A DNA stretch of 25,546 nucleotides from assembly GCA_036507075.1 (NCBI GenBank), contig DASXQR010000162.1, positions 1-25,546 on the forward strand. The letters are read 5' to 3'. A model generated the notes under the pieces. It saw only the letters and a program-made list of their open reading frames with translations, had not been told where the DNA came from and ran no database searches. Position 1 is the stretch's first letter, and every line of letters starts with the position of its first letter. The DNA comes from Acidobacteriota bacterium (GTDB lineage: Bacteria; Acidobacteriota; UBA6911; JACQSX01). Positions 1,830 through 25,546 of this stretch are shown piece after piece. Both the position numbers and the translations under genes were made by a program.

Positions 1830-1877
1830 TGAAGTCGAATCTTAACCGAGCGGAACGAAAATGGCGACTGTTCGGGG

Positions 1878-1980: not shown

Positions 1981-1989
1981 GGAGTGCGC

Positions 1990-2232: not shown

Positions 2233-2409
2233 GCCTCTCCCTTCGCAAATAAAAGGCCAATGGGGACGGAAGAGGGAACAGCGGGAAAGGCTTATTCTAG
2301 AAATGCTTACAGTCAAGAGCGGATAACACTGGTGTGACCGGGACAGTCGCGCCAGCTGTCAAGCACCCGCAGAGCCGCGACCGGAGAAACTATGAAGAAA
2401 TCAAAAACG

Positions 2410-2564
2410 GAACCGCCAAGTACGCCAAGAGCGCCAAGGCTCTAATGATTCTAATCCGGTCAAATCGTGCAATCGGTTCAAAAAAATAGTGGAAAGCCAA
2501 CATCTATCTCGATGCTACAGAACTAAAAGCAAACCCTTGGCGTTCTTTGCGGTCTTGGCGGTTC
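2410..2564. repeat. Inverted-arm element, GAACCGCCAAG-(nnCGCCAAG)n family, with AT-rich spacer
   Basis: Left arm gaaccgccaagtacgccaagagcgccaagg (2410-2439); right arm ccttggcgttctttgcggtcttggcggttc (2535-2564). Lies immediately downstream of the dapD stop. Confidence 0.88.
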
Positions 2565-2569
2565 ATTTT

Positions 2570-3400
2570 TCAGCGCAGATCCTTTTCCAGCCGAGTGGCC
2601 GAATCGGTTCGGTCGTCGCGGTATTTTACGATCAGGGGAGTGTAAACGGAGAGACCACGTGAAAACTCGTCATCACGAGACAAGGGGCGCGAACCGGGAA
2701 TAACCACAGCGTCTTCGGGAATGCTCAGCGGCTGGTGGTCTTCTTTGCGGTAGATTTTCCGGCGCACCAGATCATACACCGGAGTGCCGGAAGTCAGGAT
2801 CGTCCCGGCCGCCAGCACGGCGCCCCGGCGGACAATTGTGCCTTCATAAATGCCGCAGTTGCCGCCCACCAGCACGTCATCTTCAATGATGACGGGAAGC
2901 GCACCGATCGGTTCAATGACGCCTCCGATCTGAGCGGCGGCGCTGATATGCACGCGCTTGCCGATCTGGGCACAGGATCCGACCAGGGCATGCGAGTCGA
3001 CCATGGTTCCGTCGTCGACAAAGGCTCCTACATTAATATATGCGGGCGGCATGATGGTCACATTGCTGCCCAGATAGACTCCGGAGCGGATGCTGCTGCC
3101 GCCGGGCACAATGCGGATATTCTTTTCCACCCCCGGAACGCTGCGGGTCGGATAAGTGTCCTTGTCGAAAAACTGAAGCGGCGGCGGAGAACCGGCATCC
3201 TGGATCTTTCCGATTCTAAAACCAAGCAGGATCCCCTTCTTTACCCAGAAATTGACTTTCCACTCGGACCCCGCCCGTTCCGCGGCGCGAATAGCGCCGC
3301 TGTTGAGCGCCTCGATAAATCGATCGAAAGCCTCGCGCGCCCCCGATGTGGGATTGTCGTATTCGCTCTCGATGCGGGAAGCAAGTTCGGAAATATTCAT
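2570..3400 (-). CDS. dapD: 2,3,4,5-tetrahydropyridine-2,6-dicarboxylate N-succinyltransferase
   Basis: Motifs WKVNFWVKKGILLGFR, FFDK, RIVPG, MPPAYINVGAFVD, MVDSHALVGSCAQIG, QIGGVIEP; hexapeptide repeats. Confidence 0.96.
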   Translation of the reverse strand: MNISELASRIESEYDNPTSGAREAFDRFIEALNSGAIRAAERAGSEWKVNFWVKKGILLGFRIGKIQDAGSPPPLQFFDKDTYPTRSVPGVEKNIRIVPGGSSIRSGVYLGSNVTIMPPAYINVGAFVDDGTMVDSHALVGSCAQIGKRVHISAAAQIGGVIEPIGALPVIIEDDVLVGGNCGIYEGTIVRRGAVLAAGTILTSGTPVYDLVRRKIYRKEDHQPLSIPEDAVVIPGSRPLSRDDEFSRGLSVYTPLIVKYRDDRTDSATRLEKDLR

Positions 3401-3415
3401 TCAAGTTGCGTTAAG

Positions 3416-3471
3416 CTTTGTGTCCTTTGTGTCTTTGTGGTTAAGAAAGAAGAAACCACAAAGACACAAAG
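3416..3471. repeat. ACCACAAAGACACAAAG-family hairpin between dapA and dapD
   Basis: Perfect 18-bp inverted repeat ctttgtgtctttgtggtt (3425-3442) / aaccacaaagacacaaag (3454-3471) with an 11-nt loop. Confidence 0.9.
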
Positions 3472-3489
3472 TTCAGCATCCGCAAAGAT

Positions 3490-4374
3490 TTACTTTAATC
3501 CCACCCGCTTCAGGTTCTGGAGGAGCCGGGCCTTATTCTCTGACTGCATAGAGGCCAGCGGCAGCCGGAAATGCTCTTCGATCATTCCCATGGCGGCCAG
3601 CGCCGTTTTTACCGGGATGGGATTGGTCTCGACGAACAAATCCTGAATCAGATCCAGATACTGGCCCTGAAGTTTGCGCGCGCTGTCGAATTTGCCGGAG
3701 AGCGCCAGTTGAACCATCTTTCTCACGTCTGCCGGAGCGATGTTGCTCAGCACGGAGATGACCCCGTCGCCGCCGCATGCAATCAGAGACAGCGTGTACA
3801 AGTCATCGCCGCTCAACACGGAGAATCCGGCCGGCCGCCGGTGCAGCACTTCCAGCATCTGGGGCAGATTCCCCGATGCTTCCTTCACGCCTACGATGTT
3901 ATCGATCTTGGCAAGGCGCATCAGCGTCGAAGTGGACATGTTCACCGACGTCCGGCTCTGAATGTTATACACAACCATGGGGAGCGGCGCCGCGTCGGCA
4001 ATGGCGCGAAAGTGCCGATACTGGCCTTCCGGAGTAGGCTTGTTGTAATAAGGAACCACCTGCAGCGTTCCCTGCACTCCCATGCGATGCAGTTCGCGCG
4101 TCAGGGAGACCGAATGGGCGGTGTTGTTGCTGCCTGCGCCCACCAGCAGCGGCAGTTTCTGGTGCGATTCTTCCATACAGATTTCAACCACCCGGAAATA
4201 TTCCGGCTCTTCCAGGGAGGTGGCCTCGCCCGTGGTGCCCAGGGGCACCAGGAAATCCACTTTCGCTTTGATCTGAAAATGGACCAGCCTGCGCAGCGCC
4301 TCTTCGTCAAGTCCGCCGCTCTTTTTAAACGGCGTAACCAGCGCCGTGCCCAATCCGCGGAAAGGATGGTTCAT
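3490..4374 (-). CDS. dapA: 4-hydroxy-tetrahydrodipicolinate synthase
   Basis: Motifs TALVTPF, LGTTGE, GAGSNNT, VPYYNKP, VYNIQSRT, GVKEASG (Schiff-base Lys), LSGDD, ETNPIPVK. Confidence 0.97.
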   Translation of the reverse strand: MNHPFRGLGTALVTPFKKSGGLDEEALRRLVHFQIKAKVDFLVPLGTTGEATSLEEPEYFRVVEICMEESHQKLPLLVGAGSNNTAHSVSLTRELHRMGVQGTLQVVPYYNKPTPEGQYRHFRAIADAAPLPMVVYNIQSRTSVNMSTSTLMRLAKIDNIVGVKEASGNLPQMLEVLHRRPAGFSVLSGDDLYTLSLIACGGDGVISVLSNIAPADVRKMVQLALSGKFDSARKLQGQYLDLIQDLFVETNPIPVKTALAAMGMIEEHFRLPLASMQSENKARLLQNLKRVGLK

Positions 4375-4390
4375 AAAGTTAATTAAAATA

Positions 4391-4446
4391 CAAAAACGGA
4401 ACCGCTAAGAGCACAAAGAACGCCAAGGGTCTAATGGATCTAACCT
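4391..4446. repeat. Solo left arm of the GAACCGCCAAG-family element
   Basis: caaaaacggaaccgctaagagcacaaagaacgccaagggtctaatggatctaacc aligns with 2402-2456, including sequence beyond the arm; no right arm before dapB. Confidence 0.8.
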
Positions 4447-4519
4447 GTCTCACTTTACGCAAATAGTTTAAGATGTGGAGCAAGAGCACCATCGATTAGT
4501 CTTTCAATTTTCCAATCTT

Positions 4520-5188
4520 CTAATCCTTAAGCGTTTCTGCAAACGTGAACAAACCTTTTTTTCCGATTACCCATTGCGCAGCGTGAAGAGCGCCTTCGGC
4601 GAAGACTTGCCGGTCGCGAACTTCATGCTTCAGTGTAACGGTCTCAAACTGTGAATCAAACCCGACGACGTGCGTGCCCGGGAAGTTTCCGGCCCTAAGG
4701 CTGCTGATGGACACCTCCTTGCCGGAGAGCGGCTCCAGGCGCGCCTGCAGCTCGCGCGCGGTGCCGGAAGGCGCATCCTTTTTGGCGCTGTGGTGCGCTT
4801 CGAAGATGAACGGCGAAAATCCAGCGCCCGCGAAGAGTTTTCCAGCCTGCTCGCACAACTGGAAGACGAGATTCATGCCGATTGAAAAGTTGGAGCCGTA
4901 AACCATGCCGCAATCGGAGCGCCGTACCCACTCGCGCACCTCGTCCAGTCGCGAAGTCCAGCCCGTTGTTCCCACCACCAGATTTTTCTTCCAGGAAAGA
5001 ATGCGCTCGATGTTGCCCGGAGCGGCGTCGGGACGCGTGAACTCAATCACGACATCGGCGCGGGCAAGCGCGCCCTGATCAAGCGGCCGATCGGCGCCGC
5101 ATATGCACGAGATCTCCCAGTCGCGCGCGCGTGCGAGATGCTCAACGGCTCTCCCCATCTTTCCACGGCCTACCAGCGCGATCTTCAT
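4520..5188 (-). CDS. dapB: 4-hydroxy-tetrahydrodipicolinate reductase (short form)
   Basis: Motifs IALVGRGKMG, IEFTRP, VVGTTGW, NFSIG, EAHHSAKKDAPSGTA, PGTHVV, FAEGA. 4-bp overlap with lysC. Confidence 0.96.
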   Translation of the reverse strand: MKIALVGRGKMGRAVEHLARARDWEISCICGADRPLDQGALARADVVIEFTRPDAAPGNIERILSWKKNLVVGTTGWTSRLDEVREWVRRSDCGMVYGSNFSIGMNLVFQLCEQAGKLFAGAGFSPFIFEAHHSAKKDAPSGTARELQARLEPLSGKEVSISSLRAGNFPGTHVVGFDSQFETVTLKHEVRDRQVFAEGALHAAQWVIGKKGLFTFAETLKD

Positions 5189-6558
5189 TCGAATACGTCC
5201 GGATCCAGGTCCGAGAAAAAGCGCTCATGGAGCCGCCCGAGCGCTTCTTCCACTTTGTCTTCGTCGATCACAAAACTGAGATTAATCACGGATGCTCCCT
5301 GGCTCACCATGTGGATGTTGATCGAATCGACAGCAGAGAACGCCTGCGCCGCCACGCCGGGGGTGAATTTGATCTTGTCCCCCACAAGGCAGATGATGGC
5401 TTTGTCCTTTTCTACATTCACGCGGCCCAGAGCGCTCAAGTCGTCGGTGATTTCCTGCAGTTTCTCGGCGTCGTCCAGCGTCAAAGACACACTCACTTCC
5501 GAAGTCGTGACCATGTCGACGGACCTCTGATGACGCTCAAAAACTTCGAAAATCTTCTTCAGGAAACCGTAGGCCATGAACATCCGCGTAGAAGTGATGT
5601 TTACAATCACCACTCCCTTTTTATAAGCGATGGATTTGACCGAAGTCCGGCACGGGCCAGGCTGCGCCACGATGCGCGTGCCGGATCCGGCGGGATTACG
5701 CGAATCGAGAACCAGAACCGGTATGTCCTTTTCCACGGCCGGCAAGATGGTGCTGGGATGAAGCACGCGCGCGCCGAAATAAGCCAGCTCGGATGCCTCC
5801 GCAAAGGAAATGGTTCTGATTTTGCGCGCCCCGGGCACCAGCTTTGGATCCGTCGTCAGAATCCCGGCCACGTGGGTCCAGATCTGAATCTCCTCGGAAT
5901 CGAGGAGCGCGCCCACAATGGCGGCTGTATAATCCGATCCACCCCGGCCGAGAATGGTCGGCACGCCGCTGGCGTCCGAGCCAATAAATCCCTGAATCAC
6001 CGGAACCCGCCCCGCCTTCACGAGTGCGGGAACCACGGCCTGCAGATTGCTCCGGGTGGTTTCCATATCCGGGGCGGCGCGGTAAAACTCGCTGTTGGTG
6101 CGCACCAGTTGGCGCGCGTCCAGCAGCGTAGCAGGGATGCCTTTCTGCTCCAGGAGACTGGCAAAGATGAGCGTGGACAGCAGCTCGCCGAAGGACGCGA
6201 TGGCTGCCTGGCTTCGAGGTGAGCTTTCCTTCAAAATGCTGAGCGCCTCGAGAAGGCTCTGCAATTCAGCAAAGTATTTGTGAAGCTGGGCGGCGACCGC
6301 GGAGCCTTCAAAGGCTCGCAAGCACCGGACCGCCTCTACTTCGTGATGCCGCCGGATTTTCTGCAGCTCCTCGCTGGCGGCGGCCAGGTTTCCTTCCGAC
6401 GCGAGCCGTGTGCAGCGGACCAGTTGATCAGTGGTTTTTCCCATTGCCGACAAGACCACCACCGGACGCTGCGGCAAACGCTCGGCGACAATCCGCGCCA
6501 CGCGCTCCATGGCCTCGGCGTTTTCCACCGACAGGCCGCCGAATTTCATCACGATCAT
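5185..6558 (-). CDS. lysC: Aspartate kinase (lysine-sensitive AKIII-like, two ACT domains)
   Basis: Motifs MKFGG, VLSAMGKTTD, FGELLST, GFIG, LGRGGSDYTA, EASELAYFGARVLHP, TTSEVSVSLT, MVSQGASVINLSFV. Confidence 0.96.
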   Translation of the reverse strand: MIVMKFGGLSVENAEAMERVARIVAERLPQRPVVVLSAMGKTTDQLVRCTRLASEGNLAAASEELQKIRRHHEVEAVRCLRAFEGSAVAAQLHKYFAELQSLLEALSILKESSPRSQAAIASFGELLSTLIFASLLEQKGIPATLLDARQLVRTNSEFYRAAPDMETTRSNLQAVVPALVKAGRVPVIQGFIGSDASGVPTILGRGGSDYTAAIVGALLDSEEIQIWTHVAGILTTDPKLVPGARKIRTISFAEASELAYFGARVLHPSTILPAVEKDIPVLVLDSRNPAGSGTRIVAQPGPCRTSVKSIAYKKGVVIVNITSTRMFMAYGFLKKIFEVFERHQRSVDMVTTSEVSVSLTLDDAEKLQEITDDLSALGRVNVEKDKAIICLVGDKIKFTPGVAAQAFSAVDSINIHMVSQGASVINLSFVIDEDKVEEALGRLHERFFSDLDPDVFE

Positions 6559-7604
6559 GACAGGTAACCCTGCGCCTGCAGCAGTTCGGCGTTCAAGATT
6601 GCCGCGCCGGCGGCCCCGCGAATGGTGTTGTGCCCGAGAATCACCAGGCGCAGGTCAAGAATAGGGCAGGGGCGAATGCGACCGACAACAGTGCTCATTC
6701 CGCCGCCAGCCATCACATCGAGTCTCGGCTGCGGGCGATCTTTTTCCCTTCGCACCACGATGGGCCGGCACGGAGCGGAGGGAAGCTTCATCTGCTGCGG
6801 GAGCCCAGTGAAATTCTCCAGCAGGTGCGCGACCTCTTCCGGTGTCGCTTTCTGCTGCAGTTTGATGGAAAGGCATTCGGTATGGCCGTGCTCGACGGCG
6901 ACCCGGTTAGTTTGGGCGCTGATCACAAACGGGGCCAGCTCAATCCTGCCGTTTGTCAGCGATCCCAGAATTTTTCGCGGCTCTATTTCAACCTTCTCTT
7001 CTTCGCCGGAGATAAACGGAATGACGTTGCCCAGAATATCCCACGACGGAACACCCGGGTATCCGGCACCGGAAATCGCCTGCATCGTTGTCACAAAGAC
7101 CTTGTCGATTCCATAGCGGCGCTGGATGGGGCCCAGCGCCATTGCCAGAAACATGGTCGAGCAGTTCGAGTTGGTGACCACGCCGCCTTTCCAGCCCCGA
7201 TTCCTTCTCTGCGCAGGCAGCACCTGCAGGTGATCCGCGTTCAGTTCGGGAATCACCAGCGGAATGTCGGGCTCGAGACGGTGATTCCTGGAATTGCTCA
7301 CTACCAGATGGCCGGCGGCGGCAAAGCGCTGTTCAATCTCTCCGGCCACGGAAGCATCCAGTGCGGAAAAAGCAACCTGGAAATCCCCGCCCGGCTCGCA
7401 GGGCTCTACTTTCATGGCGGCAATCGCGGGCGGCAACTCGATCGGCTGCTTCCAGGAAGCTGCCTCAGCGTAGGTTTTACCGGTCGATCGCTCCGATGCC
7501 ATCAGCGCGCGGATCTGAAACCAGGGATGCTCGGCCAGCAAAGCAACGAATTGCTGGCCCACGGCTCCGGTTGCCCCCAGAATTGCGACATTGACTCGGT
7601 TCAT
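6555..7604 (-). CDS. asd: Aspartate-semialdehyde dehydrogenase (archaeal/fungal-type)
   Basis: Motifs ILGATGAVGQ, MASERS.GK.Y, NSNCST (catalytic Cys), QAISGAGYPG, EEEKVE, HGH, RPQPRLD, HNTIRGAAG. Confidence 0.97.
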   Translation of the reverse strand: MNRVNVAILGATGAVGQQFVALLAEHPWFQIRALMASERSTGKTYAEAASWKQPIELPPAIAAMKVEPCEPGGDFQVAFSALDASVAGEIEQRFAAAGHLVVSNSRNHRLEPDIPLVIPELNADHLQVLPAQRRNRGWKGGVVTNSNCSTMFLAMALGPIQRRYGIDKVFVTTMQAISGAGYPGVPSWDILGNVIPFISGEEEKVEIEPRKILGSLTNGRIELAPFVISAQTNRVAVEHGHTECLSIKLQQKATPEEVAHLLENFTGLPQQMKLPSAPCRPIVVRREKDRPQPRLDVMAGGGMSTVVGRIRPCPILDLRLVILGHNTIRGAAGAAILNAELLQAQGYLS

Positions 7605-7606
7605 CG

Positions 7607-7686
7607 TTGTCAGTTGTCAGTTGTCAGTTGTCCGTTGTAGTCCGTTGTCCGTTGTCAGTGGCCCGTTGTCAGTGGCTCGTTGTCAG
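7607..7686. repeat. Heptamer array TTGTCAG/TTGTCCG, about 11 units
   Basis: ttgtcag x3, ttgtccg, ...tagtccg ttgtccg ttgtcag tggcccg ttgtcag tggctcg ttgtcag; begins 3 nt from the asd ATG. Confidence 0.9.
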
Positions 7687-7700
7687 TGCTAGACAAATTC

Positions 7701-7770
7701 CTGCCTACTGCCCGCTGCCTGCTGCCTACTGCCTGCCGCCTGCTGCCCGCTGCCTGCTACCTACTGCCTA
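7701..7770. repeat. Heptamer array CTGCCTR/CTGCCCG, 10 units
   Basis: ctgccta ctgcccg ctgcctg ctgccta ctgcctg ccgcctg ctgcccg ctgcctg ctaccta ctgccta; overlaps the M20 gene stop codon. Confidence 0.9.
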
Positions 7771-8789
7771 AGCAGTGCCCGCGCCAGATCGGCGTACAGT
7801 TGAACTCCACGACTTAATTCCTGCTTGGAGATTTTTTCCTGCAATGTATGAGCGTCATCGATACAGCCAGGGCCGAGCAGCAGCGGCTCTCCAAAATGAG
7901 TCAGAAACGGAATATCGGTCGTATACGCCATGGGAGCAGTTTGGAATTCCGCCATGCGCTTGAGGCGCAGCGGCGGCACCTCAAACTCGAAATTCACTTC
8001 AGCCAGGCCGCCCACCCGCTGCAAAATCTCATTCTTCAAAACACCGCCGCCGTCAACCAGCCGGAACATCACCTCGGCAGTCGCAAAATCGGGAACGACA
8101 TTGGGTCGGGTGCCGCCCTGAATTGTACCAAGGTTTAGCGTTTCCTCTCCCAGATCCGGGTCTGTTCGAAGCTGAAGACTCCGTATCCTGTGGAGAGCTT
8201 CCAGCAGCTTTTCGATCGCATTGACCCCCAGATGAGGATAGGCCGAATGGGCGGAAACCCCGCTCGCCGTCAGTCTGCAGCGCAGCGATCCTTTGGTGCC
8301 GCTGGCGAGAACGTTTTCGGTCGGCTCTCCATTAATCAAGTAACGCAGGCCGCCGAAGAAGGGTTGCTTTTCTACCCATCGATTAGCCGCGATGGCTCCG
8401 GCGCTGTTTCGTTCTTCGCCCACGACGAACAACAGGCAGATGTTTTCAATGCCCTCTTCCCGGAAGAGCTTTTCAGCGGCCGAAACCTGCGCGGCGGCGA
8501 TGCCCTTGGCGTCACAAGCCCCACGACCGTAGATAAAGGCCTCATCTTCGGCCAGCTCCACATGGGGCGGCACCGTATCGATGTGCGTTGAAAACACAAC
8601 CTGCGGCGCGCCGCGCCGGGCAAACACGTTCCATCGTCCTTCCTCAACCGGCAGCTTCTGTGCTGACCATCCATGGTCCCGAAGATAGCCGTATAAAAAA
8701 TCGGCGGCCGGGCCTTCGCACCCTGTCGTGGATTCGATGGCGACGAGCTTGCGGGTGAGCTCTTCGACCTCGCTTGAAGCTGTTTGCAT
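7761..8789 (-). CDS. M20 family metallo-amidohydrolase (ArgE/DapE-like)
   Basis: Metal-ligand motifs STHIDTVPP, GRGACDAKG, VGEE, NGEPT, DAHT; also AHSAYPHLG and G..PNVVP. First gene of the dap cluster. Confidence 0.92.
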   Translation of the reverse strand: MQTASSEVEELTRKLVAIESTTGCEGPAADFLYGYLRDHGWSAQKLPVEEGRWNVFARRGAPQVVFSTHIDTVPPHVELAEDEAFIYGRGACDAKGIAAAQVSAAEKLFREEGIENICLLFVVGEERNSAGAIAANRWVEKQPFFGGLRYLINGEPTENVLASGTKGSLRCRLTASGVSAHSAYPHLGVNAIEKLLEALHRIRSLQLRTDPDLGEETLNLGTIQGGTRPNVVPDFATAEVMFRLVDGGGVLKNEILQRVGGLAEVNFEFEVPPLRLKRMAEFQTAPMAYTTDIPFLTHFGEPLLLGPGCIDDAHTLQEKISKQELSRGVQLYADLARALLRQ

Positions 8790-15840: not shown

Positions 15841-17310
15841 ATGAAACCCAGAAATTTAGGGGAGCTGAAAAAAGCCGGGTACCGGTCCCGGTCGGTGAAA
15901 GACGAAGTCCGAGCCAACCTGATCCGGCACCTAAGCAACAATGGAGGACCCCTGTTTCAGGGAATCATCGGTTACGAGGAGACTGTCGAGCCCCACATCG
16001 TCAATGCAATTCTTTCCCGCCATAATTTCATCCTGCTGGGCCTGCGAGGGCAGGCAAAGAGCCGCATCCTGCGCGGTCTGGCAAACCTGCTCGATCCGGA
16101 ACTGCCGGTAATCGCCGGTTGTGAAATCAACGATGATCCCCTGCGACCTCTGTGCCGCGCCTGTCGGGAGCGTTCCCAGGAAGCGGGAGACAATTTGCCG
16201 GTCGCGTGGCTGCCGCGCTCGGCCCGCTACGTGGAGAAACTCGCCACCCCGGACGTGACGGTGGCCGACTTGATCGGCGACATCGACCCTATTCGCGCCG
16301 CAAAGGAGGGCCGCGTTCTGAGCGACGAGATGACGATTCACTACGGCCTGCTGCCGCGCGCCAATCGAGGCATCTTTGCCATCAATGAGCTGCCGGATCT
16401 GGCTCCCAAAATTCAGGTGGGCCTGTTCAACATCATGCAGGAAGGCGACATCCAGATTAAGGGATATCCGGTGCGGCTTCCGCTCGACGTGCTGCTGGTT
16501 TTTTCAGCCAACCCGGAAGACTACACGGCGCGAGGCAAAATCATCACTCCGCTCAAAGATCGGATCGGATCGGAGATCAAGACCCATTATCCGGTGAGCG
16601 TACGCGAGGGTGTGCGCATCACCGAGCTGGAAGCGTGGACGGACCGCCAGGCGGCGCTGCCAGTGATAATCCCGTCGTTTATCCGCGACATTGTCGAGCA
16701 GGTGGCGTTTTTGGCGCGCGATGATCAGCGCGTCGACAAGCGTTCCGGCGTAAGCCAGCGCATGCCTATCAGTTGCATGGAGAACGTCATCAGCAACGCG
16801 GAACGGCGCGCGCTGAAAAACAATGAAAAGACCGCAGTGACGCGGCCTGCCGACATCTACAGCGCGCTGCCGGCGCTCACGGGCAAGATGGAGCTCGAGT
16901 ATGAGGGCGAGCTGCGCGGCGCTGAAAACATCGCGCGCGAGCTGATCCGTTCCAGCATTCAAAAACTTTTCCCGCAGTATTTCTCGGGCGTCGACACTCG
17001 CCCGATTGTGGAGTTTTTTGAGCTGGGAGGATCATTGAAGCTCGACAGCATGGCCTCGCGCGAAACCGCCATGCGCGAGCTCAAGAAAGTTCAGGGTCTG
17101 CTGGAGAAAGCAGCCGGGATAAAAATGGATGCCCATGCCGATGCCAAAGACGACAACTTCAGGATTTCGGCCGCCGAGTTTCTGCTCGAGGGACTATATT
17201 CAATAAAGAAGATCAGCCGCACCGAAGAACGTGTTTACATGCGCTCTGAAGAAAAGAAGGAGGAGCGATTCTACGGCGAATTTGAGAGGATGAAAAAGCC
17301 ACTCAATTAA
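15841..17310 (+). CDS. AAA+ ATPase, MoxR/ChlI-like (Rv0958-type)
   Basis: Walker A variant GLRGQAKS; YVEKLATPD.TVADLIGDIDP; RANRGIFAINELPDL; ANPEDYT.RG.IITPLKDR.GSEI.THYP; SGVSQR. Confidence 0.9.
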   Translation: MKPRNLGELKKAGYRSRSVKDEVRANLIRHLSNNGGPLFQGIIGYEETVEPHIVNAILSRHNFILLGLRGQAKSRILRGLANLLDPELPVIAGCEINDDPLRPLCRACRERSQEAGDNLPVAWLPRSARYVEKLATPDVTVADLIGDIDPIRAAKEGRVLSDEMTIHYGLLPRANRGIFAINELPDLAPKIQVGLFNIMQEGDIQIKGYPVRLPLDVLLVFSANPEDYTARGKIITPLKDRIGSEIKTHYPVSVREGVRITELEAWTDRQAALPVIIPSFIRDIVEQVAFLARDDQRVDKRSGVSQRMPISCMENVISNAERRALKNNEKTAVTRPADIYSALPALTGKMELEYEGELRGAENIARELIRSSIQKLFPQYFSGVDTRPIVEFFELGGSLKLDSMASRETAMRELKKVQGLLEKAAGIKMDAHADAKDDNFRISAAEFLLEGLYSIKKISRTEERVYMRSEEKKEERFYGEFERMKKPLN

Positions 17311-17313
17311 GAC

Positions 17314-17672
17314 AATGCGGAATGGCGAATGCGGAATGGGGAATGGGGAATGCGGAATGGGGAATGCGGAATGGGGAATGCGGAATGGGGAATGCGGAAT
17401 GGGGAATAGGAATATGGAATGGTACGATGTCCGAGGAGTGGACTGGAAGTTGAGCGCAGGATGTCTAGCGGATTTCTCACCTTTGACCCCGGGCAAGAAG
17501 TTCTTGCTATTGAAAGAATTATTCCGCATTCCGCATTCCCTATTCTGCATTCCGCATTCCGCATTCCGCATTCCCCATTCCGCATTCCGACTTCCGACTT
17601 CCGACTTCCGCATTCGGAAGTTCCGCATTCCGCATTCGTCAGTTCCTCATTCCGCATTCCGAATTCCGCAAT
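17314..17672. repeat. Large inverted-arm element, GAATGCG/GAATGGG versus CGCATTC/CCCATTC
   Basis: Left array 17314-17421, unique spacer of about 100 bp, right complementary array 17519-17672 including cgacttc variants. Confidence 0.93.
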
Positions 17673-17701
17673 TCAAAATTCACAGGCAAGCTCACTAGGA
17701 T

Positions 17702-18928
17702 ATGCCAAAGATTGTTTTCGGCAAATGGACCGGTGAAGACTGGGACTCGATCAGCCTGGAAGAATTGATCAACCGGCTGAGCAACGCGCTCCTGAACAGC
17801 GGTTTCTACGACCCGTATTTCGAGTATTCCCAGAACAGCAGCGATTTAGATGTGAGCAGTCTTTACCAGGCGCTGATTCGCGCCCTGCTCGAACAGGGAC
17901 TGCTCAGCCAGGAACAGCTTGATTCCATGACCGACGCCGATGGAAATCCCAATCAGGAGCTCAAAGATATTCTGGATCGGCTGATCGCGCGCATGATGCA
18001 GGAAGGCTACCTGAGGCAGGAAGAAAATAAACCGGGCTCGGGACAGGGACGCAGCAGCACCCCCGCCCGCTTTGAGATTACCGACAAAACGGTCGATTTT
18101 CTCGGCTTCAAGACACTCAAAGACCTGCTTGCATCGCTGGGGCGCAGCAGCTTCGGCCGGCACGACACCAATTCTCTTTCCACAGGAGTGGAGGCGTTCG
18201 AATCGAGCAAGCAGTATGAATTCGGCGATTATTTGAATCTCGATATCAGCGAGACGCTGCTGAACAGCGTCAAGCGCCAGGGCAAGAGTTTCCCCATCAG
18301 CCTGGAGTATCCGGACCTGATGGTGCGCCAGACCGAATACCAAAGCTCCTGTGCCACCGTTTTGCTGCTGGATACCAGTCACAGCATGATTTTGTATGGC
18401 GAGGACCGTTTCACTCCCGCCAAGCGAGTGGCGCTGGCGCTGTCACATCTGATTCGAACTCAATATCCGGGCGATTCGCTTCATGTGATTTTGTTTCACG
18501 ACACGGCCGAAGAGATCCCCCTCAAAACGCTGGCCCGCGTCCAGGTTGGTCCCTACCACACCAATACGCGCGAAGGGCTGCGGCTGGCGCGCAGCATTCT
18601 CAATCGCGAGCGCAGGGACATGCGCCAGATCATTATGATCACCGATGGTAAGCCCTCTGCCGTGACGCTGCCCAACGGGCAGATCTACAAGAACTCGTTC
18701 GGGCTTGATCCAATGATCATCGGGGAGACATTCAAAGAAGTCGGCTACTGCCGGCGCAGCGGAATCCTGATCAACACGTTTATGCTGGCGCGGGACCACT
18801 ATCTGGTCGAATTCGTGAAAAACGTGGCTCAGATCTGCCGCGGTAAGGCATACTTCACCACCACGCTCAATCTGGGGCAGTACATTTTGATGGATTACAT
18901 GAAGAAGAAACGGCAGACGATTCACTGA
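17702..18928 (+). CDS. VWA-domain protein (partner of the AAA+ ATPase, Rv0959-type)
   Basis: MIDAS motif [22 protein letters not shown]; also YEFGD...LD...TL, RFTPAK.VALAL..LI..QYPGD, INTFML. Confidence 0.9.
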
Positions 18929-19094: not shown

Positions 19095-19460
19095 ATGTCC
19101 AAAAACGCAGCACCGGTGTTCACCTTCATTCTGGCATTATCGTTTTTGGCGGCGCAGGAGGCGCCGCCGGAAAAGAACAAAGAAGAACTGGTCAAGAAGC
19201 TTACCGAGATGGGCATCACGGTGAAGAATCAGCCCGTGATGCTGGCCGAGGTTTTTACCGTAGCGCCCGAAGACTCCAAGATGGTAGTGAGGCTGGGGAA
19301 TCCGACCAGAACCATGGTCCTCGGCATCGGAGAAAAAGCCACCGTAAAGCAGGGAAAGAAGACCATCAAGCTCAAGGACCTGAAACGGGGCGACAAAGTG
19401 ATTTTACTCCTGGATGCCAAGACCACCATGGTGGCGGAGATATACCTGGACAAAAAATGA
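19095..19460 (+). CDS. Exported hypothetical protein, probable small beta-barrel/OB-type fold
   Basis: AGGAG RBS; signal peptide (VFTFILALSFLAA-QE); beta-rich, ending in IKLKDLKRGDKVILL...VAEIYL. Confidence 0.8.
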   Translation: MSKNAAPVFTFILALSFLAAQEAPPEKNKEELVKKLTEMGITVKNQPVMLAEVFTVAPEDSKMVVRLGNPTRTMVLGIGEKATVKQGKKTIKLKDLKRGDKVILLLDAKTTMVAEIYLDKK

Positions 19461-19579: not shown

Positions 19580-20041
19580 TCATTCCCGGACGGGGCGGCC
19601 GTAGTTTGTGCCCCAGGCGCTCACCATTTCCGAATCGCTGTCGACGATCTTCCAAATTCCGGCTTCCTTTCTCAAAAGGAAACTCTGACGGGTGTTGCGT
19701 TCCGCATAAATGGTTTCGGTGGAAAGCACGATTGTATCGGGTCCCTGCGTTTGCCGCCCGATGATGGCGAAACCCTTGACCGCGCCGCTTCGATCTTTGA
19801 GCAAGCGCGACAATTCTCCCTCGCCCTGACGCTGCGAGATATCTTCCAGACGGCGTCTCAGGTCGCCTCCGAACAGATCAACCCACTGCGACACGCTGCC
19901 CTCGCCCATGGCTTGCACCATGTCCAGCAGCGCGTCGTCTGGTGACCCCGTTTGGACCGCCCCAGGCCTCTGCGCATCGCGCAACATGAAATAGGTAAAG
20001 CCGGCGATCAGCAGGAGAGCCGGTATTACTCTTTTGGCCAT
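19580..20041 (-). CDS. Membrane-anchored hypothetical protein (NTF2/DUF4878-like pattern)
   Basis: Start set at MAKRVIPALLLIAGFTYFML (N-terminal TM), since the longer start lies in a repeat. SPDDALLDMVQAM helix and F.LRKEAGIWKIV strand pattern. Confidence 0.8.
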   Translation of the reverse strand: MAKRVIPALLLIAGFTYFMLRDAQRPGAVQTGSPDDALLDMVQAMGEGSVSQWVDLFGGDLRRRLEDISQRQGEGELSRLLKDRSGAVKGFAIIGRQTQGPDTIVLSTETIYAERNTRQSFLLRKEAGIWKIVDSDSEMVSAWGTNYGRPVRE

Positions 20042-20046
20042 AGACT

Positions 20047-20137
20047 CGGGTTTACGGGTGGCCGGGTTTCGGGTTGGCACAAAGTTTCGTTAATTCGGAA
20101 CCCGTAACCAGCAAACTCGTAACCCGAAAACCGGTAA
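20047..20137. repeat. Inverted-arm element, GGGTTAC/GTAACCC family
   Basis: Left cgggtttacgggtggccgggtttcgggttggc; right cccgtaaccagcaaactcgtaacccgaaaaccggtaac; abuts the hflK stop. Confidence 0.78.
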
Positions 20138-21151
20138 CTATTTTTTCTGAACTTCCAGAATATCCAGATCAAGCCCCTGCGCTTTGCCGCTGTCATCCAG
20201 GATCACCTTTCGGATCCTGGGCAGGATGTCTTCCATCGCTTCCAGAAACAGCCGCGCCGTGGTGACCCTTCGGTGATCCCTGTACTCCTGCCACAGCGTG
20301 GTAAAACGATCCGATTCGCCGCGCGCCCGGTTTTCCAGCTCGTTGCGATATATCTCGGATTGCTGCATCAGTTCCTGTGCCGAGCCGCGCGCCCGGGGAA
20401 GAAGCTCGTTGGCGTATCCATTCGCTTCCTGAACGATGCGATTGCGATCCTCTCGCGAGTTTGCCACTTCCAAAAATGCGTCCCGTACTTCTTCAGGAGG
20501 ACTGACCTGCTCGAGGGCCACGCTGGTTATCGTGATCCCCAGTCCCAGCGTCTCGCCTGACTCCTGCAGCGCCTGCTGTACTTCGTTCTGCAGCGCTATG
20601 CGTTCGACGGTCAAAATGTCATCCACTTTGCGGGACGCCACTGCGCGTGACATGCACTGAAAGAACAAACCTTCCAGGATCGAAGGGAGACTTTCGGAGC
20701 GATACAGGTAACCGGCCGGGTCCTGAATGTAGTACTGGATCCACGCCTGCAATCGCACCAGGTTCTGATCGCCCGTAAGCAGGTATTCATCCGGGGTGGC
20801 GGCCCCCACTCCGAGAGCACGGCTCAAGTCGGTGCTTCCGATGGCAAGCCGCTGCGCTTCATTTACTTTCAATCGAATCACGCGCTCCGCCGGGAACGGC
20901 CATGCGTAATGGAGTCCGGGTTGCACGCGCTGCCGCATCAGCTTTCCAAAACGGACTCGAACTGCCTGTTGATCGGCGGGAACGTAGAACAGCCCCGAAA
21001 GCAGATAGATCACAAGCAGGCCGCCGACCAGCCATCGCGGTTGCGACTTCAACCGCGCCAGGGACTCAGCCAAGCGGCGAAAATGAGAATGCTTCACCCG
21101 TGGGTGCATGTGACCATGTTGATGACCGTGATCATGATGTTCGTCGTGCAT
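20138..21151 (-). CDS. hflK: HflK-like SPFH protein with His-rich N-terminus
   Basis: Starts MHDEHHDHGHQHGHMH; TM LVGGLLVIYLLSGLF; RFGK, PGLHYAWPFP, LLTGDQNLV, VDDILT, PPEEVRDAF.EV..SREDR....EA.GYAN...P.ARG, VT..RLFLEAME.IL. Confidence 0.92.
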   Translation of the reverse strand: MHDEHHDHGHQHGHMHPRVKHSHFRRLAESLARLKSQPRWLVGGLLVIYLLSGLFYVPADQQAVRVRFGKLMRQRVQPGLHYAWPFPAERVIRLKVNEAQRLAIGSTDLSRALGVGAATPDEYLLTGDQNLVRLQAWIQYYIQDPAGYLYRSESLPSILEGLFFQCMSRAVASRKVDDILTVERIALQNEVQQALQESGETLGLGITITSVALEQVSPPEEVRDAFLEVANSREDRNRIVQEANGYANELLPRARGSAQELMQQSEIYRNELENRARGESDRFTTLWQEYRDHRRVTTARLFLEAMEDILPRIRKVILDDSGKAQGLDLDILEVQKK

Positions 21152-21176
21152 CTCAAATCCCGGCAGGAAGAAAAAC

Positions 21177-21329
21177 AAAGCCGTCTACGTCCACGTGTAC
21201 GACCACGTCAACGTCCACGCCTACGTCTACCGATGAGTTGTGGTAAAGACGGTAATCCTTTGACAGCGCGCCGGCGCAGGCGTTGTGGTGGACATTGACG
21301 TGGTCGTGCGCGTGGACGTAGACGGCTTT
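21177..21329. repeat. Inverted-arm element built of hexamers (YACGTC/GACGTR)
   Basis: 42-bp arms at 21177-21218 and 21288-21329 complementary with 3 mismatches. Confidence 0.92.
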
Positions 21330-21388
21330 TGCTTGACGTTCCGGCCACGCCGCGCTTTGTCCATCAACTGAATAGAGGCTCAGGGTGT

Positions 21389-22285
21389 TCATTTCACCAG
21401 TTTCCCGTTCTTGCCTGCGGTCAAAAGTTTCAGCAGCTCGGAATCGGCCGAAAGGACAGCCGTGGTTTTCTCATCCAGGATCTTGCGATAGGCCTGCAGC
21501 GTGCGCACCATTTGATAGAAATCAGGATCTCGCGAAAAGGCTTTGCCGTAAATTCGCGTCGCCTCGGCGTCTCCCTTGCCGCGCACAATTTCCGCTTCTT
21601 TGTAGGCATTGGATAAGATCTCTTCAGCGGCGCGATCGGCTTCGGCGCGGATCTTTCTCGCTTCCTCTTCTCCTTCGGCCCGGTACTGCTTGGCGATCCG
21701 CTCGCGCTCGGCGCGCATGCGGGCGAACACACTTTCCCGGTTTTGCGCGGGAAGGTTGAGCCGTTTGATTTCCACTGAGGCGATGCGGATCCCGTAGCGC
21801 GAGCGCGCCAGATTCCTGCACTCTCCAGTCACCGCCTTCATCACCGCGCCCACTTTCACGTGTTCCACGTCGGTGGAAACCAGTTCGGCAAGGGTTGTTT
21901 TTCCGAGTTCTGCTGATACCTGGGACCAGACGATATCGTGCAGGCGCATTTCGGCTCCGGCCCTGTCGCCGACGGTTCGCAGAAACAACAGCGGATCTTC
22001 CACCTGCCAGCAGACATAGTTCTCCACCAGAAGGTTCTTTTTGTCGCGCGTCAGATATTCGGACGGGCGCGGGTTGTAAAAATGCAATCGCTTATCTATG
22101 CGCGTAATTCCCTGGAACGGCAACTTGAATTTCAAGCCGGCATCCCGGTACTCGGCCACGGGCCGCCCGAATTGAGTCACCAGCACATAGTCCGTCTCAG
22201 CCACCGTGAAGAAGCTGGCGTAGCCAGCCAGCAGCGCCGCTGTAATCCAGAGTTTCTTTTGTTTCACCAATTCCATCGCCTTCAT
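21389..22285 (-). CDS. hflC: HflC-like SPFH protein
   Basis: AAGGAGGT RBS before MKAMEL; motifs VTQFGRP, AGLKFKLPF, EYLTRDKKNLLV, W.V.DP..F, GI.I..VEIKRL.LP, VFARMRAERERIA.QYRAEGEEEA..IRAEAD, G.GDAEA..IY..AFS.DP.FY...RTL.AY. Confidence 0.95.
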   Translation of the reverse strand: MKAMELVKQKKLWITAALLAGYASFFTVAETDYVLVTQFGRPVAEYRDAGLKFKLPFQGITRIDKRLHFYNPRPSEYLTRDKKNLLVENYVCWQVEDPLLFLRTVGDRAGAEMRLHDIVWSQVSAELGKTTLAELVSTDVEHVKVGAVMKAVTGECRNLARSRYGIRIASVEIKRLNLPAQNRESVFARMRAERERIAKQYRAEGEEEARKIRAEADRAAEEILSNAYKEAEIVRGKGDAEATRIYGKAFSRDPDFYQMVRTLQAYRKILDEKTTAVLSADSELLKLLTAGKNGKLVK

Positions 22286-22318
22286 ATCGAACCTCCTTCC
22301 AGTTGGCGGTGACTCGCC

Positions 22319-22532
22319 GTAGCGACGCGGCATGCCGCGTCGGAGTTGGCCGCGACATGTCGCGGCCCTGTCGCCGCCGGCTGCTCCATGCCCGGCCGCG
22401 ACATGTCGCGGCCTGACTCTGACGCGGCATGCCGCGTCGCTACGTGGGCGTCGCTACGTGAGCGCGGCGGAGCTCAGCCCCGGGGGCGCGATTTATCGCG
22501 CCCGCCTCAGACGCGATGTATCGCGTCTCTAC
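22319..22532. repeat. Cluster of six REP-like palindromes (REPIN/BIME-like)
   Basis: gtag-cgacgcggcatgccgcgtcg (22323-42); ggccgcgacatgtcgcggcc x2 (22348-67, 22394-413); gacgcggcatgccgcgtc-gctac (22421-43); gggcgcgatttatcgcgccc (22484-503); agacgcgatgtatcgcgtct-ctac (22509-32). Confidence 0.92.
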
Positions 22533-22542
22533 GAACGCCGAA

Positions 22543-25533
22543 CTACTTCTTCAAAGCCTTTTCCAAATCCGCGAAGTTAAAAATCGAATCACGAACCAGC
22601 ATCATCTTTCGCCGGCCCGACCTTTGATCAAGGATGTACTTGGACTTGTCGCCCAGCGCGGCTTCCACAGCTTCCAGATAAAGGCGCGTGCGGGTAGTCT
22701 GCGGCGCAGTTCGATAGGCGTCGTACTGCAAGTTGAAGCGCTGCGCTTCTCCCGTGCCGCGATTGACGCGCCGCATGCGGTAAGCTTCCGCCTCAATCTG
22801 TCTTTTCTGCGATTCCCCGCGCGCCAGCGGAAGGCGCTCGTTGGCGTAAGCCTGCGCCTGGTTGATCATGCGGTTCTTTTCCTCCAGAGCGCCGGCCACC
22901 TCGCGGAAAGACCCCACCACCTCCAGCGCCGGATGCACATCCTGGAGATTGAACGACAGCACCTGTACTCCCAGGTTGAGCCTGGAAGCTTCCTGCTCTG
23001 TCATCTGCGCCGCCAGCCGCTCTACCTCATCGCGGTCCAGCGCCAGCACCTGATCAAGAGACATGAAGCCCACCACATAGCGCAAAGATCCTTCGCACAC
23101 GGCTCTCAACGCCCCCTGCAGATTGTCTAATGCGAATAGATAACGCTTCGGGTCCCGGATTGAATACTGGACGATGGCGTTGACTTCCACCAGGTATTCG
23201 TCTCCCGTGAGCATCAAAGCTTCATCAGGCCGGCGGATGTAGCCGCCCTGGCGATGCTGGATATTCCACTCGTATGCGGCCGGCTCCATCCGGGCTGCCG
23301 GATCGCTCGCGATGCGAAAGCCGATCTCAAGCGAATTGACCCGCGCCGGCCGGATTCTATGCAAACGCTCTACCGGCCATGGCAAAACGTAACGGAGGCC
23401 GGGCAAAAGCGGATGCTCCGAAACGCGGCCGAAGCGCTGCACGATCCCGATCTCATCGGAACGGATTACGGCGACCCCGGACAGCAGGTACAAGGCGGGA
23501 AGTCCCACCGCAGCCGCTCGCAGCCATTCCTTCCGATGCCGGCGCGCCCACTGCGACACAGCGGCAAAGCGAACCGGCGTTCGAATGGAAGCATCCAGAC
23601 GCTTGCGCGCTTCTGCCAGGCGGTGACCGACATGATGGGGCAGCAGGTTCACGGATCTTTTCTGAAGGAGCTTCAGCGAGTTCATCAGCACCAGAAATGA
23701 GGAGCATTGATGCACTACCGCCGCGGCAATCGCGCTCAGGTAACCGGCAAAGGCTGCCAGTACCGCCGTGAGATTTACGATCAGTCCAAACCAGAGGATG
23801 TTGTCCTGGATAGTTTTCAAAGTGCGCCGGCTCGCCCGGATCAACTCGGCCAGGCGGTCCAGTCCTCCCGATCCCATTAACACCACTCCAGCCGCCTCGG
23901 CCGCAATATCGGTTCCCGTGTCGCCCATGGCGATGCCGACATCGGCGGCGGCAAGCGATGGGGAATCATTGACGCCGTCGCCCACCATTGCCACTGTGTA
24001 ATTGCGCTGCTTCAGTTCCTGAAGCCGGGCGAGCTTCTCTTCCGGAAGAAGGTCGGCGTACACTTCGGAGATTCCCACCGCCCGGGCCACGCGTTGAGCT
24101 GCCTGCGCGTGATCGCCGGTAAGCAGGACCGTCTTGTGGATTCCCAGATGCTGAAGCTGATGAATGGCGCGTGCCGATTCCGGGCGCACCGCATCACGCA
24201 GGATGAGCGCGCCGGCGAGCCGGTTCTGCACGCCTATTAGAATCGCAATCGATCCTTCGCCGGCATACCGGCCCAGGGCTTCGCGCTGCGCGTCGGAAAA
24301 TGCGACCCCTTTTTGCTGAAGAAAGCGCGCGCTTCCAACCAGCACATGACCGGCCTGCAGCGTGCCTTCCATTCCCAAACCCGGATATCTCTGCACAGCG
24401 TCAGCATGGCAAGGGACTACGTGCTGCCGGTTGGCGGCGTCCCGGATCGCCTGAGCCAGAAGATGCTCCGAGTGGGACTCGATCGAAGCCGCGAAGGCAA
24501 GCAGATCGTTTCCACGGTAATCGTCAAACGGCACAATCTCGACCAGCTCAGGACGTCCCAGCGTCAATGTTCCGGTCTTGTCGAAGGCCACGCAATTCAC
24601 CTGAGCAAGTCTTTCCAGATGAATCCCGCCTTTAACGATGATTCCGCGTCTGGCCAGCGCGCTGATGGACGCCAGAACCGCCGCGGGGGTGGCGAGCACC
24701 ATGGGGCATGGACAGGCGACGATTAGAATCGCGATGGCGCGCATCCAGTCGCGAGTGATCAGGAAGCAGGCTCCGGCGATCAGCAGCACCAGCGGAAGAA
24801 ACCACCGGGCATAGCGATCCGCGGTGCGCTGAATGGGCGCTTTGTTTTCCCTGGCGTGGCGAACCAGATCGACAATGCGGCTCAAGACGGTCGATTCGCC
24901 CACCTGCACGGCGTGAAGCACCAGCCGGCCGGTCTGGTTGAGCGTGCCGGCGAACACCGCATCGCTCGCGGCGCGCTCGCGCGGAACCGATTCACCCGTG
25001 ATGGAGCTTTCATCCACCAGAGAAATCCCTTCCACTATTTCGCCGTCCACTGGAATGCGCTGGCCCGGGTAGACCAGCACGGTTTCGCCGATGCGAATTT
25101 CTTCCAGGTGAACCTTGTGCTCGGCGCCGTCGCGTATCACGCTGGCATGATGAGGGAGGCAGGAAAGGAGCCGCTTGATGTCGGAGTGGAAGCGTCGCGC
25201 TGCGTACTCTTCCAGCGTTTCGCCCACCAGCATGATGTAAACCACTTCGGCCGCGGCCAGGTACTGGCCGACATAGAGCGCCGCCAGAGCGGCCACCGTC
25301 ACTGCCTGGTCGGCGCTGATTCTCAGAGCGATCGCATCCTGGAAGGATTTCAGGAATGTCCTGTAGCCGAAAACGAACGTGAGCGCGATGGCCAGGTCCC
25401 ATTGGAAGGGAGATCGGATCCATTGCTGCCAGTAGGCGATCAACGTCAGCCCGGCCAGACCCAGGCCTGCAAATCGCCACCGAAAGTTGTGGTCGCCTTC
25501 CAGTTGTGGATTGTGGAGCAGGGGAAAGAACAT
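22543..25533 (-). CDS. P1B-type heavy-metal-translocating ATPase fused to a C-terminal HflK/SPFH domain
   Basis: ATPase motifs PG.RIPVDG, DESSITGES, IVACPCP..LATP, FDKTGTLT, SEHLLA, LTGD, LLPEEK, MVGDGVNDSPSLAAADVGIAM. Then in frame: TM, VQRFGR, PGL...LPWPVE, MLTGDE, LQDVHP..EV..SF.EV.GA.EE..R.INQA.AYAN...P.ARGE, TRTRLYLEAVE. Confidence 0.95.
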   Translation of the reverse strand: MFFPLLHNPQLEGDHNFRWRFAGLGLAGLTLIAYWQQWIRSPFQWDLAIALTFVFGYRTFLKSFQDAIALRISADQAVTVAALAALYVGQYLAAAEVVYIMLVGETLEEYAARRFHSDIKRLLSCLPHHASVIRDGAEHKVHLEEIRIGETVLVYPGQRIPVDGEIVEGISLVDESSITGESVPRERAASDAVFAGTLNQTGRLVLHAVQVGESTVLSRIVDLVRHARENKAPIQRTADRYARWFLPLVLLIAGACFLITRDWMRAIAILIVACPCPMVLATPAAVLASISALARRGIIVKGGIHLERLAQVNCVAFDKTGTLTLGRPELVEIVPFDDYRGNDLLAFAASIESHSEHLLAQAIRDAANRQHVVPCHADAVQRYPGLGMEGTLQAGHVLVGSARFLQQKGVAFSDAQREALGRYAGEGSIAILIGVQNRLAGALILRDAVRPESARAIHQLQHLGIHKTVLLTGDHAQAAQRVARAVGISEVYADLLPEEKLARLQELKQRNYTVAMVGDGVNDSPSLAAADVGIAMGDTGTDIAAEAAGVVLMGSGGLDRLAELIRASRRTLKTIQDNILWFGLIVNLTAVLAAFAGYLSAIAAAVVHQCSSFLVLMNSLKLLQKRSVNLLPHHVGHRLAEARKRLDASIRTPVRFAAVSQWARRHRKEWLRAAAVGLPALYLLSGVAVIRSDEIGIVQRFGRVSEHPLLPGLRYVLPWPVERLHRIRPARVNSLEIGFRIASDPAARMEPAAYEWNIQHRQGGYIRRPDEALMLTGDEYLVEVNAIVQYSIRDPKRYLFALDNLQGALRAVCEGSLRYVVGFMSLDQVLALDRDEVERLAAQMTEQEASRLNLGVQVLSFNLQDVHPALEVVGSFREVAGALEEKNRMINQAQAYANERLPLARGESQKRQIEAEAYRMRRVNRGTGEAQRFNLQYDAYRTAPQTTRTRLYLEAVEAALGDKSKYILDQRSGRRKMMLVRDSIFNFADLEKALKK

Positions 25534-25546
25534 GGTTACTCTTTAA

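Follow-up and report, generated by a model that had tools for sequence, protein, structure and literature searches.

Gene content and integrity of the locus

A 25,546-bp stretch of DNA from an Acidobacteriota bacterium (assembly GCA_036507075.1, contig DASXQR010000162.1), hereafter the window, carries between positions 19580 and 25533 four minus-strand open reading frames (ORFs) that encode a P1B-type metal pump fused to an HflK-type protein (HflK1), an HflC-type protein, a second HflK-type protein (HflK2), and a small membrane-anchored protein. An earlier note, made from the sequence alone, had described these co-oriented genes, including the P1B-ATPase::HflK fusion, as a metal pump built into a dedicated HflK/HflC cage; the gene set itself is borne out by the ORFs and by family profiles. 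The fusion gene (22543..25533) encodes 996 amino acids with the Pfam domains E1-E2_ATPase, Hydrolase, and Band_7, and in this one frame the NCBIfam heavy-metal P-type ATPase profile (571 bits, cut-off 346) is followed by the hflK profile (195 bits, cut-off 159). The hflC-type gene (21389..22285, about 298 amino acids; 187 bits with the NCBIfam hflC profile, cut-off 134) probably starts with the ATG at 22285 behind a GGAGG ribosome-binding site, and the hflK2 gene (20138..21151, about 337 amino acids; hflK profile, 205 bits) probably starts with the ATG at 21151. All three SPFH proteins pass the HflK/HflC (SPFH3) family test, i.e., the NCBIfam cut-offs, a single transmembrane (TM) helix, an SPFH domain, and a coiled coil.

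The window is the entire contig C162 of a 6.1-Mb genome that is 95.7% complete, and the nearest relatives identified by genome scan are titled Acidobacteriota. The sequence breaks off 13 bases upstream of the fusion gene's start codon, and therefore the promoter lies outside the visible sequence; no other contig end overlaps the window end, and the upstream genes of relatives gave no join. Two soil metagenome runs contain 98% and 92% of the words of the region, three others (X3–X5), left aside in judging the habitat, contain small fractions, and no RNA dataset containing it was found in the sequencing-run search. One contig of a run (X1, possibly the source sample) covers positions 22568–25546 with 0 differences, and a second run (X2) covers only a part. 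Together with 163 full-length homologues carrying both the pump and the HflK parts among the proteins returned, the X1 contig rules out an assembly artefact as the origin of the fusion.

The intergenic gaps contain repeats: a palindromic cassette between the fusion gene and hflC (22318..22534; 235 hits on 58 other contigs), a 52-nt inverted repeat between hflC and hflK2 (21177..21329; 87 hits on 34 other contigs), and a short repeat between hflK2 and the small gene (20062..20134; 61 hits on 32 other contigs). The presence of such cassettes had been noted correctly, but they are not functional parts of the system. We consider these ordinary genome-wide elements incidental, because they recur on 32–58 other contigs and because the genes mostly abut in relatives.

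Anatomy and class of the fused pump

The fusion protein consists of an eight-helix pump (residues 15–620) without an N-terminal metal-binding domain, cytoplasmic linker helices (627–665), a ninth TM helix (667–684), an SPFH domain (687–868), and a coiled coil of about 90 residues (870–960). In the AlphaFold model, which was based on a 150-row alignment (mean predicted local distance difference test score, pLDDT, 83.4; predicted template modeling score, pTM, 0.62), the best Foldseek matches are CopA, ZntA, and P1B-4 structures. The HflK part of the protein matches E. coli HflK (7vhp, E 1.6e-34). Since the C-terminus of the pump is cytoplasmic and is followed by the ninth helix, the SPFH part is predicted to lie in the periplasm, following the established topology of HflK; the model supports the same placement in the earlier note.

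The features expected of a P1B-ATPase, that is, DKTGT, TGE, a Cys-containing M4, and the MA/MB plus M1–M6 fold, are all present in the fusion. The phosphorylation motif DKTGT (D318; 24568..24582, minus strand) and the M4 metal site CPC (C274-P275-C276; 24706..24714, minus strand) are found in 163/163 homologues and the A-domain TGE in 162/163, and judging by these residues the catalytic motifs of the pump are intact. The M6 pair His-Gln (H608-Q609; 23707..23712, minus strand) is likewise found in 163/163 homologues, 20 residues after the invariant M5 residue N587.

The site does not fit the best-known classes. Pumps of the P1B-1 class (CopA, Cu+) have YN in M5 and MxxSS in M6. These motifs are present in the CopA-type pump of the same genome, while the fusion has N578/N587 and HQxSS; on these motifs we reject a CopA assignment, and they give no support to the database name "Cu+-exporting ATPase". 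The P1B-2 class (ZntA), defined by an M5 lysine and an M6 aspartate (PMC8880997), is excluded by N587 and H608-Q609 at those sites; a ZntA-type pump from Aquibium has K and D. The P1B-4 class (CoaT/PfeT), with SPC in M4 and HEGxT in M6 (PMC8880997), is excluded by CPC and HQxSS, although the M6 His, the built-in counterion in a P1B-4 structure (PMC8880997), and the missing metal-binding domain are common to both. An AntA-type antimony pump, the best plasmid match at 40% identity, has FQEAG in M6 and does not group with the fusions. The nearest motif is that of the P1B-6-like/CtpC group, given in PMC13460109 as N-X18-H-N-X-(S/T) across M5–M6, with CPC in CtpC; the fusion motif N-x20-H-Q-x-S, found in 163/163 homologues, differs from it by Gln in place of Asn and by its spacing, and our pump tree covered sequences other than CtpC and FezB. 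The fused pumps define a P1B group whose CPC/N/HQ site is unassigned. The transported ion would be divalent, with zinc as the first choice. Two P1B pumps encoded on plasmids also have unusual sites: one, linked to antR, has CPC and FQEAG (L087:5827-7773), and the other, from Rhizobium, has the motifs TSP and HLGPD (L088:5872-7764).

HflK1 loop and histidine tracts

The alignment reveals an inserted loop specific to HflK1 (residues 750–761; 23251..23286, minus strand) with a W-x3-H motif (W756, H760). H760 is invariant in 150/150 sequences, and W-x3-H[RK] is found in 159/163 P1B fusions. The loop also occurs in six acidobacterial fusions with a CDF domain and in the long HflK of four unfused clusters (both described below), and it is absent from HflK2 and from the canonical and pair HflK rows, the latter being stand-alone hflK-hflC pairs.

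HflK2 has an N-terminal cytoplasmic tail with 10 His in the first 24 residues (21080–21151). This tail, by which the second hflK gene had been characterized in the earlier note, is indeed present here; however, with a tail in only 5/60 loci it is neither a constant nor a defining feature of the system. If a His tract is defined as six or more His in 30 residues, tracts are found in 34/60 loci, compared with 0/126 control stretches, at three sites, all predicted to be cytoplasmic: the fusion linker (14), the HflC N-terminus (16), and the HflK2 N-terminus (5), with two sites used in one locus.

A new anchored NTF2-like family

The small protein (19580..20041, minus strand; 153 amino acids, likely start ATG 20041) has one N-terminal TM helix and an NTF2-like periplasmic domain, and no Pfam or NCBIfam family was found for it. 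Its model (pLDDT 83.1) has NTF2-like matches (Foldseek E 1.8e-5; Z 11.6, root-mean-square deviation 3.1 over 115 residues), with no structural match clearly above other NTF2-like rows. At E 1e-10 or better the family comprises 507 representatives, and a new anchored NTF2-like family is defined here.

Conservation and phylogeny of the module

A scan of GTDB species genomes yielded 70 fusion loci in genomes titled Acidobacteriota, Verrucomicrobiota (with Lentisphaeria), Planctomycetota, and Armatimonadota. The order fusion-hflC-hflK2 is observed in 63 of them, and the other seven stop at contig ends; hflC is present in 67/70 loci. Pump and HflK1 never occur as clean separate genes (0/70), three loci being frameshifted. 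In the subsets tallied, the median gap between the fusion gene and hflC in relatives is 3 bp (39/41 within 50 bp), and hflK2 and the small gene overlap or abut in 22/22 relatives. The module is patchy, being found in approximately 6% of the phylum sample.

The small gene is present in 57/70 loci; of the 58 loci whose sequence extends past hflK2, all but one have it. All 22 full-length matches in 101 class genomes, which were searched for independently, adjoin the hflC of a triad. Similarly, of 401 phylum genomes, 23 encode a fusion-type HflK1, and exactly these 23 have a full-length small gene, a count for which few candidates were scored per genome and in which kin are not independent. All four genes were found in 10/10 loci fetched via the small gene. 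Locus counts and the independent search support the co-conservation of the four genes. In L034, apparently the same contig as G289:C5 of a genome placed in the phylum of the window, the small gene is instead positioned upstream of the fusion gene.

In a quick HflK tree (65/87 rows, 22 near-redundant rows being omitted by choice), the fusion HflK1 and HflK2 proteins each form one clade (93 and 94, respectively, in the Shimodaira-Hasegawa-like approximate likelihood ratio test), outside the group of canonical and pair HflK. The supported groups of fusion-type HflC also exclude canonical and pair rows; both the HflK and HflC trees included 21 of the 70 fusion loci. These separate clades, together with additional K-C pairs in relatives, support the earlier suggestion that the SPFH subunits are paralogous to FtsH-associated HflK/C.

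The same layout with other transporters

The layout transporter::HflK1-hflC-hflK2 also occurs with transporters of other families. A CDF domain, with both HxxxD motifs, takes the place of the pump in five class loci, one phylum locus, and one Aquibium plasmid, and a metagenome scan with the CDF fusion yielded one near-identical locus. Four loci carry an SO_0444-family Cu/Zn efflux domain (two of the four were profile-scanned, both above cut-off). Other triads adjoin PCuAC/SCO/Dsb genes or a TonB receptor gene. The fusion of three unrelated metal exporters to a cage subunit would identify the client of that subunit without a pull-down.

Given these observations, the module probably encodes an SPFH scaffold dedicated to the pump. 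It is very improbable that no ring is formed, with the HflK1 domain acting alone as a periplasmic appendage and the neighboring SPFH genes merely travelling along: the fusion model, at pTM 0.62, does leave the domain arrangement open, but the complete coiled coil and the C-terminal strand region are kept, and wherever the sequence allows, hflC and hflK2 accompany HflK1, whichever of the three transporter types it carries.

Several CDF loci have further neighbors. In L156 (1634-5685) a gene for a TonB-dependent receptor, with a copper receptor as its best match, below cut-off, lies 30 bp upstream of CDF::HflK1 on the same strand. Behind the CDF::HflK1 triads of L090, L091, L093, L097, and L106 lies an unknown gene in convergent orientation, truncated at contig ends in two of them, and in three loci a gene for a calcineurin-like phosphoesterase follows.

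Relation to FtsH and canonical HflK/HflC

As stated in the earlier note, ftsH and hflX are absent from the window (none among the 23 ORFs scanned). The single ftsH gene of the genome sits on contig C42, the hfq/hflX/ftsH context is missing at the locus, and ftsH was found in none of the fetched neighborhoods except its own. In E. coli, 24 subunits, HflK in alternation with HflC, surround one to four FtsH hexamers (10.1101/2024.08.09.604662). The module shares with this complex (7vhp, 7wi3, 9cz1, 9cz2, 9paw) K- and C-type subunits with one TM helix, a periplasmic SPFH domain, and a long coiled coil; it differs in having two different K subunits, one of which covalently bears a pump, in lacking hfq-hflX/ftsH linkage, in a conserved insertion of 35–40 residues in HflK1 directly after the FtsH-contact strand, beside the contact residues, and in its separate clades. 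Among the residues by which E. coli HflK contacts FtsH, R141, E142, and R185 (PMC13220708), the equivalents of R141 and E142 differ in both K subunits, and HflK1 but not HflK2 retains that of R185; canonical rows vary at these positions as well.

By orthology, with clades and operon context as the evidence, the module is not an FtsH-type HflK/C complex. The subunits might nevertheless join an HflK/C assembly that contains FtsH, the fusion keeping the pump near the protease or shielded from it, so that pump level tracks the metal. This is improbable, although both K subunits and the HflC pass the NCBIfam hflK/hflC cut-offs, R185 is retained in HflK1, and these are the only such proteins of a genome that has FtsH. 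On the other side stand the absence of ftsH from the fetched loci, the large insertion at the FtsH-facing strand, and the relatives, as a separate K-C pair (18 whole, one cut) is encoded in 19 of 22 module-bearing class genomes. Moreover, 38 of 101 class genomes, including both from the same family, have no HflC above cut-off, and therefore the lineage does not need one. The possibility that these are the genome's only FtsH-type HflK/C, which the earlier note took to count against its dedicated-cage proposal, holds for this genome as far as gene number is concerned, but relatives carry the module as an extra set. Deletion mutants of similar P. aeruginosa genes (paFlo) also had no tobramycin phenotype, unlike hflK-hflC, in the passages available of PMC13086221.

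On plasmids, stand-alone hflK-hflC pairs (L086, L134, L136) were observed immediately upstream of nhaA or of genes encoding cation:proton antiporters, and SPFH pairs may serve antiporters too. Pairs from Vibrio, Roseibium, and Methylophaga form one clade with the acidobacterial pairs (L110–L129). A 411-residue ORF in genome G016 (L109:5615-6850), HflC-like in its first half and HflK-like in its second, is either a chimera or an assembly error.

Comparison with known systems

Unfused hflK/hflC/P1B neighborhoods, which the earlier note had mentioned as lacking any characterization, do exist: clusters of a long hflK, hflC, hflK, and a P1B-ATPase gene are found on replicons of Burkholderia, Paraburkholderia, Klebsiella, and Rhizobium. 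The second half of that statement is too strong. Loss of znuA in P. aeruginosa upregulates the cluster PA2434-PA2439, comprising hmtA and three HflK/C-type genes, by 5.6- to 14.4-fold (PMC4542158), and its proteins are raised in zinc-depleted proteomes (PMC11761036). Zur binds the PA2439 promoter, while hmtA mRNA is not repressed by zinc (PMC8531726). Deletion of PaFlo5-7 (PA2437-39) had no phenotype in the tests described in the available portion of PMC13086221, a portion in which the words "ATPase" and "HmtA" do not appear. The cluster shares with our module a K-C-K triad with a P1B-ATPase, separate from the housekeeping hflK-hflC and patchy in distribution (PMC4542158, PMC13086221).

The plasmid clusters have the gene order of the hmtA cluster, by which we equate them with PA2435-39. 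Like the fusion, they have a pump with CPC and an M6 His and a long HflK with W-x3-H; unlike it, the pump is unfused, the long HflK carries another multi-helix domain, M6 has HN rather than HQ, and no NTF2-like gene was detected in those loci. K subunits are 22–29% and pumps 32–36% identical to those of our module, and the two kinds of pumps form a weak sister grouping (81/63) on long branches. A role in uptake or recapture, in which the dome would collect periplasmic zinc or copper for import by the pump, is suggested by HmtA, which belongs to a Zur-bound hflK-hflC-hflK cluster and is described, in second-hand citations, as an importer. The K-C-K plasmid pumps, with CPC and HN, fall on the same side of the weak split, and a TonB receptor precedes one CDF fusion. 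We consider this role hardly probable, as the identities are low, the branches are long, and the transporters in the CDF and SO_0444 fusions are exporters.

Mycobacterial effluxosomes (PacL1-3 with CtpC, CtpG, and CtpV; PMC13460109) share with the module a membrane scaffold dedicated to P1B-ATPases, an optional His-rich motif, and, in CtpC-like pumps, CPC with N...H. PacL is, however, a cytoplasmic, unfused, non-SPFH protein of the DUF1490 family, compared with a periplasmic subunit of the SPFH ring type here, and no DUF1490 PacL domain was found in the four proteins or the window neighbors. The module is an HflK/C-family system whose mode of action would resemble those of the hmtA cluster and of the effluxosome.

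The cage of human stomatin is oriented towards the cytoplasm. It encloses AQP1 and UT-B (PMC12407830), and so resembles the module as an SPFH oligomer around transport proteins rather than a protease; it differs in being a eukaryotic homo-oligomer whose clients are non-covalently held passive channels. The words "ATPase" and "transporter" do not occur in the accessible part of an SPFH survey (PMC2636767), and our literature search, which covered main texts and few subscription papers, found no description of the fusion.

Proposed mechanism and purpose

Our overall reading, offered tentatively and at slightly less than an even chance, is that a dedicated ring carries the pump instead of FtsH and that a divalent metal, most likely zinc, passes into the dome for the loading of exported metalloenzymes. 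HflK1, HflC, and HflK2 would co-assemble with K and C subunits alternating as in E. coli. By occupying K positions without a pump, HflK2 would lower the number of pumps per ring and dilute the bulky pump-bearing HflK1. The pump lacks a metal-binding domain; the cytoplasmic His tracts may take over that part and supply it with metal, which it would export into the space under the dome. There, the W-x3-H loop of HflK1, situated where E. coli HflK touches FtsH, could receive the ion or dock a client, assisted at the pump exit by the NTF2-like protein. The purpose would be metal delivery rather than detoxification.

The genomic neighborhood tilts towards delivery, a circumstantial indication. Genes for exported DUF3604 hydrolases, the neighbor that recurs across lineages, are found in 18/70 fusion loci and in 10/10 loci of one further genus, and seven lie directly upstream of the fusion gene and co-oriented with it. 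The DUF3604 protein, which we take to be PHP-like, has a hydrophobic N-terminus and an HxH motif. Of the two functions considered in the earlier note, metalloprotein loading gains circumstantial support from this linkage, and coupling of pump turnover to proteolysis gained none. A more general extension of this idea, namely, periplasmic metallation chambers in which HflK1 is a modular socket for a P1B, CDF, or SO_0444 exporter and the Trp-His loop with the NTF2-like adaptor loads DUF3604-type metalloenzymes, is speculative, and we regard it as doubtful.

An efflux platform, where the ring clusters or stabilizes a detoxifying exporter in a membrane microdomain in the manner of PacL and Ctp proteins, with no periplasmic client, is on balance unlikely, though a serious contender. 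All three fused transporter types come from export families, the plasmid match with the highest bit score belongs to an antR resistance operon, and the CtpC signature of CPC and N...H-N-x-S/T is close to N-x20-H-Q-x-S; His-rich PacL scaffolds are, moreover, required for CtpC and CtpG stability (PMC13460109). Against such a platform, a dome over the exit would presumably hinder clearance, no conserved metal-sensing regulator was found among the 45 largest neighbor clusters, and the Pseudomonas counterpart is induced by lack of zinc. An efflux platform also leaves the conserved loop in the periplasm and the linkage to DUF3604 without an explanation.

Several observations weigh against loading by a dedicated ring. 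DUF3604 genes are absent from the window, from 52/70 fusion loci, and from 10/10 CDF and SO_0444 triad loci; the source genome has about four, all outside the window. While they are found in 0/20 pair loci, these controls are shorter (11 vs. about 16 kb), and the counts are not matched for the number of gene copies in each genome. No shared palindrome or operator was found upstream of the fusion gene in 62 loci. Each of the three transporter families found in the fusions carries the name of an efflux system, as would be expected for detoxification just as well, and the nearest characterized pump is reported to be an importer, with a triple SPFH deletion that has no phenotype in standard tests, as far as the accessible texts report. 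His tracts are missing in 26/60 loci, and neither the Aquibium CDF fusion nor three of the four SO_0444 fusions (L152–L154) have the W-x3-H loop. A single clade of fusion-type HflC proteins is recovered in 42% of bootstrap trees and so lacks resolution. Finally, the module contains the only HflK/C-type proteins of a nearly complete genome with FtsH, and canonical HflK of S. meliloti also differs at the FtsH-contact residues, which limits that comparison.

In bacteria as in eukaryotes, the role of SPFH cages for membrane proteins beyond FtsH is still an open question, and the fused pump offers a direct readout, as metal-dependent ATPase activity and transport can be compared with and without the ring. 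The proposed loading ring also provides a hypothesis for Pseudomonas PaFlo5-7, deleted without phenotype in experiments in which, judging by the available passages, metal was not varied.

Other genes in the window

Converging on the metal operon, three plus-strand genes in a row (15841-18928) encode an AAA protein with weak matches, below cut-off, to chelatase subunits (BchI/cobaltochelatase), a 127-residue ORF, and a VWA-domain protein. Between them and the small gene, with which it is convergent, lies a plus-strand ORF of 121 residues (19095-19460) with a signal-peptide-like start and no Pfam family, flanked by genome-wide repeats. The minus strand at 711-8789 is occupied by an ordinary lysine/diaminopimelate cluster that includes genes for an aminotransferase, DapD-, DapA-, and DapB-like proteins, aspartokinase, Asd, and an M20 peptidase.

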